From Chitinophagales bacterium (GTDB lineage: Bacteria > Bacteroidota > Bacteroidia > Chitinophagales > UBA10324), in contig JBGAWA010000011.1 of the NCBI GenBank assembly GCA_044227805.1, positions 1 through 61,371 of the forward strand: 61,371 nucleotides of DNA, read 5' to 3'. The position numbers were made by a program, and so were the translations under genes. Below the pieces are notes generated by a model. The model had not been told where the DNA came from and ran no database searches. It saw only the letters and a program-made list of their open reading frames with translations. Shown here piece by piece: positions 44,919-53,904 of this stretch (its first letter is position 1; every line of letters begins with the position of its first letter).

Positions 44919-45665
44919 ATGAATAAATCACTGTTGATTTACGCCACCTGCCTGCTGTTTTTTGCGCAACAATTGCAAGCGCAGGAATATCTGCTTTCCA
45001 GTGCAAGGTGGTCTGATATGTCGAACCGCTCAACGAGAAACACCGCCTCTGCCATTAGTATAGATAGTTCGCTGATCACGATCTCACAGGGACCGACCAA
45101 CCTTTATCTGGAAATCACCAAACAGTCAAGGCGTGAAAACATCTTCACCTACGAGGTGATTGATCCTAATGATCAGGTGGCTACTGCCATCTTCTCACCG
45201 GAAGAAATGACCTTCGATTACAGAGCCGGGCCCTATTGGCTGCGTTACTTCATTACCACTATTCAACGGCCGGAAAAAGACGATGCTCCGGCCATTGCAA
45301 AAGACTCTGCAGGCAATAAGAATGATACGGCGGAAGTGGTGGAAGACACCAAAATTTACGAGACCGCCACCGTGATGCCGGAGTTTCCCGGCGGGAAAGA
45401 AGCCATGGATCGTTTCATCGCCGGGAACCTCAGGTATCCGGCGGCCGCGAAAAAAAGCAACCTCAAAGGATTAGTGACTATTTCAGCCATCGTGGAAAAG
45501 GACGGCTCGTTGAGCGACGTGAAAGTGAAAAAAGATATTGGCGGAGACTGCGGCAGCGAAGCCGTAAGAGTTGTTAAACTGATGCCAACCTGGATTCCGG
45601 GGCAGATAAAGAACGAAGACAAGCGTGTACGTATCAGTATCAGCCTGTTTTTTCCTCCGAAGTGA
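44919..45665 (+). CDS. Exported protein with C-terminal TonB domain
   Basis: Signal peptide ..LQA|Q; MPEFPGG..NLRYP..G.V....VEKDG...EAVRVVK.MP.W.PG. A -7 box TAGATTTG lies at 44892-44899. Confidence 0.85.
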
Positions 45666-45699: not shown

Positions 45700-46410
45700 T
45701 TACTTTATTGCCGCCTGCATACCTTCCGTTGCCATCTGCTTCAGCGATCCTTTTACGATTAAATATTGCGCCGCGATATAGGTCACCATTATCAGGAAAC
45801 CCGCCATCGCAAACGGAGTCGCGAATTTATTGATGGCCAGCAAAGAGTCGCTCAGCATAAAACTCATCGCTCCGGCGAATACCAGCAGAAAACTGTGGTA
45901 TTCAACCCGGCGGAATCTGTTGAGTGCGGCAATGCCCATGAGGAGTATCACCAACATATACACCAATACCGGAATTAACAGGCTGCCAAGCCCCTGGCTG
46001 ATGAAGAAAAAAAACAAGAGACCATATGCCGCGAAGAGCAGGACCAGCCAGGGCTGCTGGCGAATTACTGACTGCGTGTGGTGAACCGATGTTTTTCCAA
46101 ATGCAAGGATGTAACAAAGGTGCGCTGCGAGGAAACTGATTAATCCTGCCAGGAAAAAACCGGCCTCGTTTTGCTGAAACAACAGCAGCACATCGCCCAA
46201 CCAGGAAAATGAAAGTGCTGCGAGCATAAAATTCCGGTGCGCTTTATTCAGCTTGCCAGACTGAAGATAATACAGGATGCCAAGCAGCAAGAGTAATAAA
46301 GGCTTGGTAAGTATCACGAGGCTATTAAAAAGTGCGCCGCCAAGAATGGCCGCGAGGTGAATTCCCGCAACAACAAAAAATGCCTGGAAGGAAAAAAGTT
46401 TAGTGCGCAT
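45700..46410 (-). CDS. Lysoplasmalogenase (YhhN/TMEM86 family)
   Basis: Polytopic membrane protein; TKPLL, SWLGDVLL, GLISFLAAHLCYI, FMLSDSLLAINKF, IM.TY..AQY. Confidence 0.9.
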   Translation of the reverse strand: MRTKLFSFQAFFVVAGIHLAAILGGALFNSLVILTKPLLLLLLGILYYLQSGKLNKAHRNFMLAALSFSWLGDVLLLFQQNEAGFFLAGLISFLAAHLCYILAFGKTSVHHTQSVIRQQPWLVLLFAAYGLLFFFFISQGLGSLLIPVLVYMLVILLMGIAALNRFRRVEYHSFLLVFAGAMSFMLSDSLLAINKFATPFAMAGFLIMVTYIAAQYLIVKGSLKQMATEGMQAAIK

Positions 46411-47641
46411 TCAGGTGGTGATTCTTAGCAACCGGTGCATGATAGCATTGCTGTATCCAGAAAACAGATCCCGCTACTACCACTGCTATCGAAACAGCAA
46501 TGACTGCAAAAACCGCAGTATCCTTCAGCAGGTATAACAGCGCGGCAGCGGTGAGCAGCAACCTGGTCTGTTCAATTACCAGAGCCATTGGTTTTGCTTC
46601 CAGCAAATACCCGCATGCCATCACGGCGAATGTTATCAGTGCGGCCGCCAACAACTGTTCCGTAAAAGACAAACTGCCAAGGTTAAAAAGGAAAAATGAG
46701 GCGCCGGCGAGTATGAGCAGAAATTGCAGGAGCAGATATATATTCATCGCACGACTCAAAGGCGTATTGAATTTTTCATAACTCTCTGCCTGCACCGCTT
46801 TGGGTTCACGATAACCGCCATACTTTTCGGGCAGCCAGCCTGGTTTCTTAAACAACAACCTTATTTTATCAGGCCATTCCTTAATAAGTTTTACATCGCT
46901 CCACATATTCGTGAATGGCAACAGGTGTGCGGCAACCGGATCCCATCGCTGAACTGGTGTAGTGATACCATACACCACTTTTTCCTCTTCCTGCTGAAAT
47001 GTGTCGAATAACCTGTCCCAGATGATCAGCGTGCCTCCATGATTACGGTCAATATATTTGGGGTTTTTCCCGTGGTGAACACGGTGATGGGAAGGAGTAT
47101 TGAAAATATATTCCAGCGGGCCCATGCCGCGAATGGCTTCCGTATGAATCCAAAACTGGTAAAGAGTATTATAAGCACTCAGCAGGAGAAACCAGGTGGT
47201 ATTGAATCCGGCCAGTGCAAGCGGAAGGTAAAATGCAGCCGTAAAAACCTTTTGCAATGCTCCCTGCCGCAACGCTACAGACAGGTTATATTCTTCACTC
47301 TGATGGTGCACGACGTGACCAGCCCAGAACAAATTAATTTCATGGCTCAGCCGGTGTGCCCAGTAGTAAAAAAAATCGACTCCCAGAAAAAGGAGCAGCA
47401 ACCAATACCATTTGTCCGGCACGGTAAACAGGCGAAAATGGTCGTACACCACAGCGTATAATGCGACGGTAAAAACTTTGGCGAATGTGCCAGTCACCTG
47501 CTCAAAAATTCCGCAGCTGATGTTACTGACCGCATCATTCAAACGGTAGAGGTGTTTGTTGGTAATACGGTCATAAATTATTTCAATACCAATAAGGATA
47601 AAAAAGATGGGAATAGAAAGTACAATTGGATTTATTGCCAT
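46400..47641 (-). CDS. Alkylglycerol monooxygenase-like di-iron membrane enzyme (fatty acid hydroxylase/sterol desaturase family)
   Basis: YYWAHRLSHEINLFWAGHVVHHQSEEYNLSVALRQ, YQFWIHTE, NTPSHHRVHHG.N..YID.N.GG.LIIWDR.F.TF, plus the AGMO-type C-terminal extension (KPGW.P). Overlaps the next gene by 11 nt. Confidence 0.85.
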   Translation of the reverse strand: MAINPIVLSIPIFFILIGIEIIYDRITNKHLYRLNDAVSNISCGIFEQVTGTFAKVFTVALYAVVYDHFRLFTVPDKWYWLLLLFLGVDFFYYWAHRLSHEINLFWAGHVVHHQSEEYNLSVALRQGALQKVFTAAFYLPLALAGFNTTWFLLLSAYNTLYQFWIHTEAIRGMGPLEYIFNTPSHHRVHHGKNPKYIDRNHGGTLIIWDRLFDTFQQEEEKVVYGITTPVQRWDPVAAHLLPFTNMWSDVKLIKEWPDKIRLLFKKPGWLPEKYGGYREPKAVQAESYEKFNTPLSRAMNIYLLLQFLLILAGASFFLFNLGSLSFTEQLLAAALITFAVMACGYLLEAKPMALVIEQTRLLLTAAALLYLLKDTAVFAVIAVSIAVVVAGSVFWIQQCYHAPVAKNHHLNAH

Positions 47642-47814
47642 GGTGGTAATTTAATCATGAAAAACGAGACCGCAAAAAAAGTCAACCGGCCTTCATTTCA
47701 AGTTTTACATTGTATGAAACAACTTGGGTGCTTACGGGCAACTTCCCGGTCCGGCATCCGTAGCGCTCGATGCTGCACGGCAGTCCGATTGCAGGTGTTT
47801 TACTATTTTCAGCC

Positions 47815-48366
47815 ATGCAAAAAACAAAACTACTCCGGCAATTCAATATGCTGGAAACGTCGCGTAAAAAATTAACCAATGACTTAAAAAAATTGGATCC
47901 GGCATTGCTTCAGTACAAGCCTGCACCTGACAAATGGTCGGTGAGTGAGGTGCTGAATCATCTGCAATTTTCAGAACAGGCCTCTATCGCTTATGCAACA
48001 AAAAAAATTTTGGGCGGAAAGTCATTGAAGAAAACAGGCATGGCGGCTACCCTGCGCGCGGAAGCGCTTTCACTTTTACTAAGGTCAGGTTACAAATGGA
48101 AGGCACCAGCCGTACTGGCCGCCGCAGCGGAAAACCTGCCTTTTGAAGAAGTGGCTGAGCGGTGGACGGCAACAAGGCAACGGATGAAATCTTTTTTGGA
48201 AAACCTGCCCGATGAACTCATCATGCGGGAAATCTACAAGCATCCGCGTGCAGGAAGACTGAATGCCTTACAAATGATGCAGTTCTTTCATGATCATTTC
48301 AATCATCATCTGCCACAAATCAACCGGCTGAAGAAAGCGATCGCCGCAATCCATACAACCACGTGA
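47815..48366 (+). CDS. DinB/YfiT family protein
   Basis: KP.PDKWS..EVL.HL...E; HP.AG.L...Q...F...HF.HH..QI. Confidence 0.85.
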   Translation: MQKTKLLRQFNMLETSRKKLTNDLKKLDPALLQYKPAPDKWSVSEVLNHLQFSEQASIAYATKKILGGKSLKKTGMAATLRAEALSLLLRSGYKWKAPAVLAAAAENLPFEEVAERWTATRQRMKSFLENLPDELIMREIYKHPRAGRLNALQMMQFFHDHFNHHLPQINRLKKAIAAIHTTT

Positions 48367-49338: not shown

Positions 49339-50439
49339 TTACTTTTCACTTTCCACATTCACCACTTCATACATGCTTTTTCCGTCTTTCTGAATGGGCT
49401 GATAATAGGTTTCGCCGATCTTCACATACGTAACATCGCCGATTTTTATTTCTTCACCTCCTTCCGGTAAATTTTCCACAATGGCGCCGGCTGTGGGTGG
49501 CACAACAGTATATCCATCTGATGATTTTTCATAGTAGGCACCACCGTAATAGTAATTATTGGTGGTCTCATTGATCACCACCGTTTGCGATTGCGCCGGC
49601 AATGTTGTTATGGTAGCTCCCACCGGCGCCTGCACTACCGTATAACCACCATTGCTTTGCACGTAATATACGCCCTGATCGTAGTAGTATGGCTGACTGT
49701 TAACACTCACTACCACCGCGGTAACCGCCAAGGTAGCCACAAAAAATCCCCAAGGATGCCAAACCGGTCCCCAGTAGTAAGGGTGATAAGGATGATAATA
49801 ATAAGGATGGTGACAATAATACCGGTGACCACCATAAACATAGGGTGGCCGTGAATAGTGATAGTTGCTGTTTCTTACCACCGTATTCTTGTTATTATTG
49901 ATATTAATATTGTTGCTGTTATCAATATTAATATTGTTATTGCCTCCGCCGGATGGCCGGTTGCCGGCATTACCATTATTGTTGCCATTTCCAGGCTTAT
50001 TACCCGCATTGATATTGTTGTTCCCACTGGCTGGCTTGTTACCTGAATTGATGTTGTTGTTCCCACTGGTTGGCTTGTTACCCGAATTGATGTTGCTGTT
50101 TCCTGTAGAAGGCCTGTTTACGGAATTGTTATTTCCGGCCGGCTGCTGTGGCTTACTTACTGCATTGCCGCTACCGGAAGGATTTCTATCAGGCGGACGC
50201 TGACTTCCACCATTGATGGTACCCTTGTTACCACCGGAAGGAGTGGCAGGCCTTGACATATTAGAGGCTCCGCCGGAAGGTGCTGACGGTCTCGACATGG
50301 TGGACCCACCGGAGGGCTTTGCTGCACCCCCGCCTCCGTGACGCATTTGCTGCGCTTGCACAGTGATGGAGAAAAGTATGGCGGCAAGCAGCAACGTGCA
50401 GCCGGAAACGAATTTTTTTAGAAACAAGAATATATGCAT
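49339..50439 (-). CDS. Secreted protein with N/G/S/P low-complexity region and DUF6515-like C-terminus
   Basis: Signal peptide; 13-aa repeats (SGNKPTSGNNNIN; 39-nt DNA period near 50000-50110); H/P/Y-rich segment; YYY.QGVYY...Y.VV.AP.GA....LP occurs twice. Confidence 0.75.
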   Translation of the reverse strand: MHIFLFLKKFVSGCTLLLAAILFSITVQAQQMRHGGGGAAKPSGGSTMSRPSAPSGGASNMSRPATPSGGNKGTINGGSQRPPDRNPSGSGNAVSKPQQPAGNNNSVNRPSTGNSNINSGNKPTSGNNNINSGNKPASGNNNINAGNKPGNGNNNGNAGNRPSGGGNNNINIDNSNNININNNKNTVVRNSNYHYSRPPYVYGGHRYYCHHPYYYHPYHPYYWGPVWHPWGFFVATLAVTAVVVSVNSQPYYYDQGVYYVQSNGGYTVVQAPVGATITTLPAQSQTVVINETTNNYYYGGAYYEKSSDGYTVVPPTAGAIVENLPEGGEEIKIGDVTYVKIGETYYQPIQKDGKSMYEVVNVESEK

Positions 50440-51195: not shown

Positions 51196-51681
51196 GCAGA
51201 ACCCTTTATTTTTTTCCTGTTTATTTACCCGTCAGACATTGATTGTTTAAATGACAGGCCTGGTGAAGGGTTAAATATATTATTCATTTTATTGTATTGC
51301 AAATCCGGCCGTATGGCTTCCACTCGTTCCTGCTGGCTTCCTTCTCCTGATTTTAAGCAGAGGGCCTAAACAACACCGCCACATCTTTACTTACTTCAGT
51401 ACATATAAACAGACGGTATTACATCCAGAAATCAAAAACATCTTGTCGCACAATCCCTTTTTTTCAGCTCAAAAATCAATCAGTCTTAACCACGCGATTA
51501 CACTGCCGTGAATTTTCAAATCATCTTGCTCTACAATTAAAACAAGACTCGCCTGAGAAGTGGCATGATGTGGTTTTCCGGGATTTTTCAATTGAAAAAG
51601 CTGGGATAAAACTACATTTGGCGATTACCATCCGGCATCCGGAAAAGGATGACGGCTGCCAGTCAACAACCGCTTGCTCAC

Positions 51682-53904
51682 ATGAAAATCCGGATTGCGC
51701 TGTATCTCTTTGTTGTAGCGGCTATAGCCATTGTTGGTACGAGTCGCTGTAAACTGGCAAAAGAAGAAACGCCTTTATTCACCAATAATGAATATACCGG
51801 TAACATCTCCTGTCAGTCATGCCATCAGCTTCAGCATAGGGAATGGCTCACTTCCCATCACTACAAGGCGATGCTTCCTGCCACAGATTCTACCGTGTAT
51901 GGCAACTTCAACAATGCCGTGCTCACAGCAGATGGCGTAACGTCGCGCTTCTTCAGGAAAGAGGAGAAGTTTTTTATCAATACGCAGGGTGAAGACGGGA
52001 AAAACCATGACTATGAAGTAAAATACACTTTCGGCTTCACCCCGCTGCAACAATACCTGGTGGAATTTCCGGGTGGCAGGATGCAACCGGCAAGAACAAG
52101 CTGGGATACTAAAAACAAGAAATGGTTTCATCAATATGCAGGGCAAAAGATTCCGGCCGGCGACTGGCTGCACTGGACCGGCAATGGGCAGAACTGGAAT
52201 ACCATGTGTTCTGGTTGCCACAGCACCAATGTGCAGAAAGGATACGACCAGGCAACTGACAGTTATAAGACAACCTATAACGAAGTGAACGTAAGCTGCG
52301 AGTCATGTCATGGCCCGGGAAAACTGCATATCGATTATGTCAACAGCAGCGATTACAAAAGCGGCCATAAAGTGACGGGGTCGCTGCTTCATTCAACCAA
52401 GTCGGAAGGTCAGCGGCAACAGGTGAATACCTGCGGCTACTGTCATGCGCGGCGGGTAGATATTACCGGTGCTGTTTTGCCTGGCCATGAATTCATGAAT
52501 GATTTTATCGCGGAGCTGCCGGTTAACACTTTTTTTTATGCTGACGGACAGATGCGGGAAGAAGATTACAACTATACTTCGTTCCTGCAAAGCAGGATGT
52601 ATCACCGCGGAGTAATGTGTTCCAATTGCCACAATCCGCACAGCGGCAACCTGAAGCTGGAGGGAAGCAAGGTTTGCTCACAGTGTCATTCTACATCCCG
52701 CTACAACCTCCCTTCCCATACGATGCATGCAGAACAATCGGAAGGCAGCAGTTGTATCAATTGCCACATGCCATCCAAAACATATATGGGTGTCGATCTG
52801 CGGCATGATCACAGTTTCCGGATACCGCGTCCTGATTTAACAGTGAAGTACGGAACACCCAACACCTGCAACAGTTGCCATAGCAACCAACCGGCGTCGT
52901 GGGCTGCGCAGGCCATCGAGAAAAATTTTGGTTCGGCAAGGAAGTATCATTTCGCGGAAGACCTGGTTCCGGGCAGCCTGCTGAACCGTGACAGTGAGGC
53001 GCATCTTCGCAAATTAGCCGGTGATACCGCTGTTCCAAACATTGTACGCGCTGCCGCTATTGATTACATCAGCAGGCTCAATACGGAGAGCAGCGGCACA
53101 TTGCTTTTGAAATACCTCAGTGATACGGCAGCTATGGTAAGATACCAGTCGCTTAAGGGCCTTTATGGTTATGATCCCGCTTTATGGATGAATTCTGCGG
53201 CACCATTCCTCGAGGACTCTGTGCTGGCAGTCCGAATTGCCGCGGCTGAATTATTCACCTCCCTGCCGGCAAGCCAACTGCCTGCTTCGCTGCTCGTGGC
53301 ATTTGGTAATTCAAGAAATGAACTGGAACGCTTTATCCACTACCAGACCGACTTCGCACAAGGTAATGTACAGGCAGGCGACTATTACAGGCGATTGCAT
53401 AACCTGGATGCCGCGGAAAAATTTTACAGGATAGCGATAGCAAAAGATAACATGCTCGCCGTTGCAAGAGTCAACCTTGCTTCCACATTGAATGAAAGTG
53501 GCAAAAATGAAGAAGCTTTACAACAGCTGCTTTTGGCACAGAAAGCGGAACCCGCAAGTGATTTTATTTACTATAACCTGGCCTTGTTATATGTTGAAAT
53601 GAAACAGGATGATCTTGCGCGGAAAGCTTTTCAGAAAGCGGTTGACCTGCATTCAGCGAATATCCGTGTTTATTACAATTACGCTCTACACCTCCAGCAA
53701 ACCGGAAAAGCTTCGGAGGCAGAAAAGCTTTTTCTGCAGGCGCTGGAGATAAATCCTTCCGATGGTGATGTGCTGTATGCATTGACTATCTACTACCTTC
53801 AGCATAACAATGCCGCAAGAGCGAAAGAAACAGCGCTCCGGCTGAAACAGTATCATGCAGGCAATGCGAGCTATCAGCCTTTATTGCAGCAGCTTCAGCT
53901 GTAA
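51682..53904 (+). CDS. Multiheme (8 CxxCH) c-type cytochrome with HEAT and TPR repeats
   Basis: CQSCH, CSGCH, CESCH, CGYCH, CSNCH, CSQCH, CINCH, CNSCH; DHSFRIPRP; HEAT-like VRAAA/VRIAAA; C-terminal TPRs. A -7 box TACATTTG lies at 51613-51620. Confidence 0.9.
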   Translation: MKIRIALYLFVVAAIAIVGTSRCKLAKEETPLFTNNEYTGNISCQSCHQLQHREWLTSHHYKAMLPATDSTVYGNFNNAVLTADGVTSRFFRKEEKFFINTQGEDGKNHDYEVKYTFGFTPLQQYLVEFPGGRMQPARTSWDTKNKKWFHQYAGQKIPAGDWLHWTGNGQNWNTMCSGCHSTNVQKGYDQATDSYKTTYNEVNVSCESCHGPGKLHIDYVNSSDYKSGHKVTGSLLHSTKSEGQRQQVNTCGYCHARRVDITGAVLPGHEFMNDFIAELPVNTFFYADGQMREEDYNYTSFLQSRMYHRGVMCSNCHNPHSGNLKLEGSKVCSQCHSTSRYNLPSHTMHAEQSEGSSCINCHMPSKTYMGVDLRHDHSFRIPRPDLTVKYGTPNTCNSCHSNQPASWAAQAIEKNFGSARKYHFAEDLVPGSLLNRDSEAHLRKLAGDTAVPNIVRAAAIDYISRLNTESSGTLLLKYLSDTAAMVRYQSLKGLYGYDPALWMNSAAPFLEDSVLAVRIAAAELFTSLPASQLPASLLVAFGNSRNELERFIHYQTDFAQGNVQAGDYYRRLHNLDAAEKFYRIAIAKDNMLAVARVNLASTLNESGKNEEALQQLLLAQKAEPASDFIYYNLALLYVEMKQDDLARKAFQKAVDLHSANIRVYYNYALHLQQTGKASEAEKLFLQALEINPSDGDVLYALTIYYLQHNNAARAKETALRLKQYHAGNASYQPLLQQLQL

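Follow-up and report, generated by a model that had tools for sequence, protein, structure and literature searches.

What might a free-living bacterium do with an oxygenase that resembles the animal enzyme alkylglycerol monooxygenase (AGMO), encoded back to back with a putative lysoplasmalogenase? The question is raised by a 61,371-nucleotide stretch of DNA from a Chitinophagales bacterium (contig JBGAWA010000011.1 of assembly GCA_044227805.1), which we call the window. Its minus strand carries an open reading frame (ORF) at 46400..47641 for an AGMO-like di-iron membrane oxygenase of 413 amino acids (aa) with a Pfam FA_hydroxylase domain and, at 45700..46410, an ORF for a 236-aa protein of the YhhN/TMEM86 family (Pfam YhhN), a putative lysoplasmalogenase. 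The two overlap on that strand by 11 nucleotides, ATGCGCACTAA at 46400..46410, which hold both the TAA stop codon of the oxygenase gene (46402-46400) and the ATG start codon of the YhhN gene (46410-46408). An earlier note on this DNA, made from the sequence alone, had proposed an ether-lipid catabolism operon, and its description of two co-oriented genes sharing 11 nucleotides agrees with the ORFs, which run from 47641 to 46400 and from 46410 to 45700. On balance we lean towards a reading in which the oxygenase and the YhhN protein would act as one unit for the cleavage of exogenous ether-linked glycerolipids. The homology and the linkage behind this reading are supported by the data below, and the function is one that we infer on good grounds; the pair and its natural fusions point to a putative bacterial route for ether-lipid breakdown.

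The oxygenase and its likeness to animal AGMO

Is the 413-aa protein AGMO-like, as the earlier note had claimed, or a generic member of the fatty acid hydroxylases? The protein has transmembrane (TM) helices at its N-terminus, a match to Pfam FA_hydroxylase over residues 82-214 (102.4 bits) and a C-terminal membrane domain at about residues 299 to 400. Residues 299-364 align with Pfam AGMP_C (PF24858) at 20.9 bits, below the cut-off of 28.3, and a precomputed PF24858 match is present in 24 of 120 close homologues. The named animal AGMOs were found by way of an amoebozoan relative; by blastp, gibbon AGMO (445 aa) is 40% identical to the 413-aa protein over 357 aa (E 1.6e-82). When gibbon AGMO is compared with the whole source genome, the 413-aa gene is the top match, the second best, a 321-aa paralogue on contig C14, is matched over 172 residues only (E 3.6e-35), and the remaining three paralogues score 1e-17 or worse. 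The C14 paralogue (G000:C14:2200-2994) lacks the C-terminal membrane domain and has leucine at the positions of both human Glu137 and human Gln162; short forms like it were matched in 45 genomes of an even sample of 301 Bacteroidota genomes, each at least 90% complete. An hhalign comparison of 16 bacterial with 13 animal AGMO sequences gives a probability of 100% (E 2.2e-112, 401 columns) and spans window residues 6-409 and AGMO residues 40-445, so that the C-terminal membrane extension remarked on in the earlier note is included in the alignment to animal AGMO, right through to the C-terminus.

The likeness extends to individual residues. The motifs quoted in the earlier note, HRLSHEINLFWAGHVVHHQSEEYNLSVALRQ, YQFWIHTE and NTPSHHRVHHG, are all in the translation, and for a residue map we aligned the 413-aa protein to gibbon AGMO, with numbering as in PMC3304488. 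Mutagenesis of human AGMO reported there found eight histidines, His201, Gln162, Asp233, Asn235, Tyr236, Trp243 and Asp244 to be essential, with His201, Trp243 and Asp244 essential generally across the superfamily (PMC3304488). The eight histidines (human H132, H136, H145, H148, H149, H221, H224 and H225) correspond in order to the three His boxes of the window protein, H96/H100, H109/H112/H113 and H186/H189/H190, and the ninth, His201, corresponds to H166. Further kept are Gln162 (Q126), Asp233 (D198), Asn235 (N200), Trp243 (W208) and Asp244 (D209), as well as Gln197 and Tyr338. Mutation of human Glu137 was reported to raise the Km for tetrahydrobiopterin 18-fold, and the consensus from 11 animals around this residue is H-E-[ILV]-N-I-[FILM]-W-A-[AG]-H, with an acidic residue that is claimed in that report for no other fatty acid hydroxylase (PMC3304488). 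The window protein keeps this glutamate after the first His box, as had been noticed earlier, in the form of E101, and its HEINLFWAGH fits the animal consensus but for one conservative change, L for I. Among the genome's four other FA_hydroxylase paralogues, position 137 is occupied by R, R, L or S, and position 162 by F, F, L or S.

A 75-row tree gathers the 20 eukaryotic AGMOs into a single clade (support 100), which shares an unresolved group with bacterial lineages; this combined group stands apart from three distant paralogues of the source genome (support 96). The window protein belongs to a clade of Bacteroidota sequences (support 99), and the bacterial group also takes in the short C14 paralogue, which has a long branch. 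Among the eukaryotic records, a 747-aa mite protein from Oppiella nova (P0172) has tandem FA_hydroxylase domains, for which a gene-model join, a duplication or contamination is possible. Judged by blastp, the residue map, the tree and hhalign, the 413-aa protein stands far nearer to AGMO than to those fatty-acid-hydroxylase paralogues that can be tested.

The bacterial family to which the protein belongs is large. It comprises 1743 representatives at 50% clustering (E <= 1e-30), includes Leptospira, Pseudovibrio and many other bacteria, and has a member in at least 592 species-level genome loci; among the matches listed, the nearest relative of the window protein comes from a Chitinophagales metagenome-assembled genome (MAG) and is 76% identical. 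Several relatives are labelled 'alkylglycerol monooxygenase' by JGI, and relatives are labelled 'sterol desaturase family protein' by NCBI. A search of PDB sequences returned no meaningful match for either the oxygenase or the YhhN protein.

Linkage of the oxygenase to YhhN

The second gene belongs to the YhhN/TMEM86 family, as proposed in the earlier note: the 236-aa protein scores 149.6 bits against Pfam YhhN (cut-off 25.6) over profile positions 3-181 of 182, in a family of about eight TM helices, and it is the only YhhN copy in the source genome. Its polar residues at the proposed active site, assigned by order and spacing against the published TMEM86/MtbYhhN numbers rather than by a direct TMEM86 alignment, are K36, G72-D73, H97, S187-D188 and Y211. 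Residues in the same order have been proposed and tested for TMEM86A/B and MtbYhhN (PMC11994398, PMC9052158). Across 19 paired YhhN proteins, K36, G72, D73, S187, D188 and Y211 are invariant, and H97 falls below 90% conservation.

Is the pairing a peculiarity of one genome? We surveyed the best 80 of the at least 592 genome loci that encode a relative of the oxygenase, seven of which have too little downstream DNA, leaving 73 usable Bacteroidota loci. In 18 of these 73 (18 of 80 overall), the next gene downstream is YhhN, with strand and order as in the window. The YhhN start, inferred heuristically from alignment in these 18 related pairs, overlaps the oxygenase stop by 4-26 nucleotides in 14 of them and follows it by 0-9 nucleotides in the other four. 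The pair is present in 4 of 5 loci from Chitinophagales, 4 of 4 from Flavobacteriales and 2 of 2 from Sphingobacteriaceae, and in other Bacteroidota besides. A protein tree places all 19 paired rows (the 18 loci and the window) in one supported 24-row clade, with at least four changes of label.

The even sample of 301 Bacteroidota genomes allows association to be counted as well as adjacency. Orthologues, defined by a threshold of 330 bits, occur in 25 genomes, 19 of which also have YhhN, directly downstream in four cases. A second full-length AGMO-like subfamily (30-37% identity) occurs in 29 genomes, with YhhN present in 25 and adjacent downstream in five; additionally, YhhN adjoins a short paralogue, on its upstream side, in one genome of the 301. 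Altogether, YhhN is found in 40 of the 50 genomes with a full-length AGMO-like gene and in 30 of the 251 without either subfamily, a contrast that overstates the association because the genomes are kin.

Natural fusions provide a separate line of evidence. Every one of the 23 YhhN-matching proteins of 414-2000 aa is a fusion of FA_hydroxylase and YhhN, 573-607 aa long, from Variovorax, Caenimonas, a Pseudomonadota MAG or metagenomes, and a twenty-fourth fusion was found among the 50%-cluster representatives. All 24 keep the AGMO residue set, Glu137 and Tyr236 included, and in the 23 the oxygenase always precedes YhhN. A metagenome scan with an alignment of the fusions returned 587 relatives, with a single-ORF fusion in 47 of the best 80 loci, although this count is biased by the query. 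The AlphaFold2 (AF2) model of one fusion (P0464) has a pLDDT of 77.4 and a pTM of 0.74, with values above 90 in the YhhN part and below 50 in the His-box loops; Foldseek returned no match for the model in PDB at E <= 0.001. The pairing is far beyond chance, and by these counts the linkage arose in at least three lineages.

YhhN is one of several fusion partners of the AGMO-like domain. Between them, P0163, P0166, P0244 and P0257 join it to two alpha/beta hydrolases (Abhydrolase_2, and Abhydrolase_1 with a TAP-like domain), to SRPBCC/Polyketide_cyc2 and to a beta-lactamase-like module made up of beta-lactamase2 and Golvesin_C. The lipid-related partners among these, namely the two alpha/beta hydrolases and the SRPBCC domain, are counted in favor of an ether-lipid function for the pair.

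At the locus itself, the unit would consist of the oxygenase and YhhN genes alone, because the flanking genes are convergent on one side (a TonB_C protein, 44919-45665, plus strand) and divergent on the other (a DinB_2 protein, 47770-48366, plus strand; both assigned by Pfam). The divergent intergenic region at 47642..47769 is presumed, from its position only, to hold the promoter of the two-gene unit. A sigma-70 scan, which does not cover Bacteroidota-type promoters, found no site in this region; its single promoter-like site lies inside the gene, fewer than in shuffled sequence. Contigs from RNA libraries (three runs) include short parts of both genes and leave the junction unbridged, and as there is no silent control stretch to compare with, such coverage does not amount to proof of transcription. 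Near-identical DNA is present in activated-sludge and wastewater runs. Farther out, the neighbors are AspRS, an M28 peptidase, a LytTR protein, OmpH, a DUF6515 protein (49339-50439, minus strand) whose N-terminal half is a long Asn/Gly/Ser-rich low-complexity segment, a DUF2092 protein and a 751-aa protein (51649-53904, plus strand) with several CXXCH multihaem cytochrome motifs and C-terminal TPR repeats. By Pfam annotation of the window, no lipid, pterin or redox gene stands beside the two-gene unit.

Related loci have conserved neighbors of their own. Among the Cytophagales loci these are parE/parC, a small lipoprotein, a 3-hydroxyacyl-CoA dehydrogenase, MscL and others; among the fusion loci they are a histidine phosphatase, a D-serine-dehydratase-like protein, DUF4136, RuvB and a PP-loop protein. 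The lipoprotein ORF, of about 115-130 aa with the motif NELYKRNQKFYYY...RFNAMG and no Pfam family, replaces YhhN in 52 of 80 loci (Cytophagales loci L017-L090). We considered it as a possible YhhN relative and rejected it, with an hhalign probability of 0.1; the ORF is absent from the source genome. The 3-hydroxyacyl-CoA dehydrogenase gene lies farther downstream on the same strand in 36 of 80 loci. In 19 of 80 fusion loci (L092-L140), the gene immediately before the fusion, in the same orientation, codes for a D-serine-dehydratase-like pyridoxal phosphate enzyme (Ala_racemase_N and D-ser_dehydrat), an arrangement that may be synteny only.

Proposed chemistry and competing explanations

How might the two proteins work together? 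In the reading that we favor, both genes would form a single transcription and translation unit, and the 413-aa protein would be a membrane di-iron oxygenase that represents the AGMO clade in bacteria. On the analogy of the animal enzyme, it would hydroxylate C1' of the saturated 1-O-alkyl chain in alkylglycerols or lyso-alkyl-glycerophospholipids, and the resulting hemiacetal would break into a fatty aldehyde and a glycerol moiety. The reducing equivalents would probably come from a bacterial tetrahydropterin bound near E101. The YhhN protein, in turn, would hydrolyze the vinyl ether of lysoplasmalogens, likewise yielding a fatty aldehyde, and the purpose of the unit might be food or detoxification. 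Animal AGMO and lysoplasmalogenase both require a free sn-2 position, a requirement that fits the alpha/beta hydrolase fusions of the AGMO-like domain. In other words, bacterial ether-lipid cleavage is what we infer from homology and linkage combined.

Where would the electrons and the substrates come from? The earlier note had reported no pterin or electron-donor gene adjacent to the pair, and annotation of the window and of related loci agrees. It had also suggested a search of the genome for pterin genes. The source genome (a 4.07-Mb assembly, 95% complete) encodes folE, which neighbors fabD and a futalosine hydrolase gene, together with folB, a pterin-4a-carbinolamine dehydratase (G000:C131:21759-21986) and two PTPS-family genes, neither of which scores above the QueD cut-off; folE and PTPS-family genes are thus present, but no tetrahydrobiopterin branch could be called from these pterin genes. 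No phenylalanine hydroxylase was found in this 95%-complete genome. The dehydratase occurs in 237 of the 301 Bacteroidota genomes, including anaerobes and families without an AGMO-like gene, and a pterin link by phyletic pattern was set aside as uninformative because this enzyme is near-ubiquitous yet was not found in four pair-bearing genomes. As for substrates, the source genome has no match over the cut-off to CarF/PEDS1 (PF10520) and no HGD-D match, its sole FAD-oxidase_C protein is GlcD-like, and no marker of ether-lipid or plasmalogen synthesis was found in it. Substrates from outside the cell are weakly favored because such a marker is missing from a 95%-complete genome.

Several observations weigh against the reading of the pair as a unit for cleaving exogenous ether lipids. 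The first concern the oxygenase. Tyr236, essential in human AGMO, is His201 in the window protein; the position is His in the Bacteroidota and Leptospira relatives and Tyr in the proteobacterial fusions. Residue 137 varies as well: among the 120 close homologues it is E in 79, Q in 35, T in four and A in two (41 without Glu); among 150 representatives it is E in 73, R in 29, T in 11, Q in six, V in five, G in two, H in one and S in one, with no motif in 22. Even among the 18 paired orthologues the counts are E 9, Q 4, V 4 and T 1, and of six additional adjacent pairs, five have Q and one has K. Threonine at this position is seen in the amoebozoan proteins P0261 (Vermistella) and P0333 (Balamuthia) and in the Pseudovibrio group (P0247), and in 14 of 118 matches of a eukaryote-centred search. 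Judged by its residues, then, the window protein fits the pterin model, and the family as a whole may not. Additionally, none of the 80 genome and 80 metagenome loci has a conserved pterin, reductase, ferredoxin or aldehyde dehydrogenase neighbor, and the pterin-4a-carbinolamine dehydratase was not found in G178, G011, G050 or G122, all of which have adjacent pairs. The variability of Glu137 and the absence of nearby donor genes together weaken a strict pterin model.

Further points concern the phylogeny, the linkage and precedent. The earlier note had called for a tree of the protein against AGMO, ERG3 and FA2H; the grouping with 20 eukaryotic AGMOs was obtained, but in a quick tree search without ERG3, FA2H, SC4MOL or CH25H and with a polytomy at the base of the clade. 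The survey of neighborhoods and fusions, also suggested there, turned up conserved adjacency, overlap and natural fusions, but adjacency is the minority state (18 of 73 loci) and lies largely within one clade, and the pair occurs in only 1 of the 44 Cytophagales loci with room for it. Within one family (f28), co-occurrence stands at seven genomes against 5.9 expected, which is about chance. Lastly, the one characterized bacterial AGMO-like enzyme, PRUB680, is reported to cyclize prodigiosin (PMC7911779, PMC6667630).

A bolder proposal is that the pair and the proteobacterial fusion form a dedicated ether-lipid-cleaving complex, whose oxygenase would draw its electrons from a bacterial pterin or from a reductant new to the family; we regard this as possible but doubtful.

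What if, instead, the enzymes act in sequence on one substrate, the oxygenase desaturating an alkyl ether to a vinyl ether or another labile intermediate and YhhN hydrolyzing the product? Fusions and overlapping stop and start codons usually link subunits or consecutive steps, and here the long YhhN proteins, 23 in number, are fusions without exception, with the oxygenase first, and an overlap is seen in 14 of 18 pairs. The fatty acid hydroxylase superfamily readily switches between hydroxylase and desaturase chemistry, and the loss of Glu137 in 9 of the 18 paired orthologues would suit another reductant or another chemistry. However, the catalytic residues of the oxygenase are those of AGMO, and the AGMO reaction is described as passing from the hemiacetal to the fatty aldehyde and glycerol moiety with no second enzyme needed (PMC7911779). 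Each enzyme can also work alone, to judge from the 10 of 50 AGMO-like genomes without YhhN and the 30 genomes with YhhN only, and we consider sequential action unlikely.

Remodeling of an endogenous non-ether lipid, such as an aminolipid, sphingolipid or sulfonolipid of Bacteroidota, would be another use for the pair; the oxygenase would then serve as a lipid hydroxylase, and YhhN would do something other than cleave lysoplasmalogens. The nearest NCBIfam model to the oxygenase is that of the ornithine-lipid hydroxylase OlsE (NF052566, E 4.9e-19), members of the family are spread widely among free-living aerobes (at least 592 species loci), and many bacteria that carry YhhN are reported to make no plasmalogens (PMC9052158). 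Yet the OlsE score of 68.7 bits is far under the cut-off of 475, the likeness to AGMO covers the whole protein, AGMO-specific residues included, and the pair or its fusion is found in Proteobacteria, too, whose membrane lipids differ. Moreover, both bacterial YhhN proteins described as tested, those of Legionella and M. tuberculosis, are lysoplasmalogenases (PMC9471318, PMC9052158). Endogenous remodeling is, in our judgment, quite unlikely.

Very improbable is a tailoring oxidase of secondary metabolism, on the model of the prodigiosin cyclase PRUB680 of Pseudoalteromonas rubra, which accounts of the family present as the sole AGMO-like enzyme from bacteria whose reaction is known: the window shows no biosynthetic genes for about 6 kb to either side, none are conserved near 160 related loci, the partner is a lipid hydrolase family, and the gene contexts are of a housekeeping kind (parE/parC, AspRS, gpmA-like, ruvB). 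A generic sterol desaturase or fatty-acid hydroxylase with YhhN beside it by chance, for which the NCBI label of the relatives might speak, is extremely unlikely given the AGMO homology, the residue tests and the fact that adjacency or fusion recurs in three lineages, linkage data that contradict chance.

Significance and comparison with known systems

A large bacterial family with the catalytic residues of AGMO offers material for structural and mechanistic work, and some of its members are fused to a YhhN domain that is predicted to fold well. AGMO is described as the only enzyme known to cut the saturated alkyl ether bonds of glycerolipids (PMC3617469, PMC7911779), and the animal enzyme as never having been purified (PMC3617469, PMC7911779, PMC3304488). 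Should the pair and the fusion prove to be a dedicated complex, the oxygenase would be the first of its kind outside eukaryotes and a tractable stand-in for animal AGMO, and non-pathogenic bacteria would gain a missing physiological context for their YhhN. What YhhN does in the many microbes that carry it and make no plasmalogens is described as open (PMC9052158), and the linkage to an AGMO-like gene suggests a role for it in such bacteria. In ecological terms, the route would put a name to the recycling of ether lipids from eukaryotic, anaerobic or myxobacterial sources by aerobic heterotrophs of sludge, soil and sea. If true, the extensive bacterial radiation that surrounds one eukaryotic clade would also point to bacteria as the origin of animal AGMO. 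A literature search that did not reach supplements returned no paper on ether cleavage by a bacterial AGMO or on an AGMO-YhhN pair or fusion.

How does the pair compare with what is known? The plasmanylethanolamine desaturase CarF/PEDS1 (TMEM189) of myxobacteria and animals is, like the window oxygenase as we read it, a membrane di-iron His-box enzyme that works on C1' of an alkyl ether lipid, but it belongs to another Pfam family (PF10520) and is biosynthetic rather than degradative. PRUB680 is nearer in kind. Reviews list AGMO for animals, with PRUB680 as one related bacterial enzyme (PMC3617469, PMC7911779, PMC6667630); by its description, it is both bacterial and AGMO-like, which indicates that bacteria can supply a working reductant, whereas its substrate is a pigment rather than a glycerolipid and the available accounts mention no YhhN partner for it.

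For the YhhN protein, the comparison is with the lysoplasmalogenases TMEM86A/B, LpYhhN and Rv1401, with which it has in common the full Pfam profile and the order K, GD, H, SD, Y; the spacings are 37/24/91/23 in the window protein and 39/22/86/23 in TMEM86A (PMC11994398). Bacterial YhhN is discussed in the reports at hand for Legionella and M. tuberculosis only, as a defense against host lysolipids (PMC9471318, PMC9052158). LpYhhN and Rv1401 come from intracellular pathogens, whereas the host of the window YhhN is a free-living sludge bacterium, and unlike the known lysoplasmalogenases, the window protein is encoded together with an AGMO-like oxygenase. That oxygenase, finally, resembles animal AGMO (TMEM195, EC 1.14.16.5) in its N-terminal TM helices, its eight-His di-iron motif, its C-terminal membrane domain, a sub-threshold match to AGMP_C, and its 40% identity. 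It differs in being about 32 residues shorter at the N-terminus and in having His for Tyr236, and its coupling or fusion to YhhN is a bacterial feature that animal AGMO does not have.

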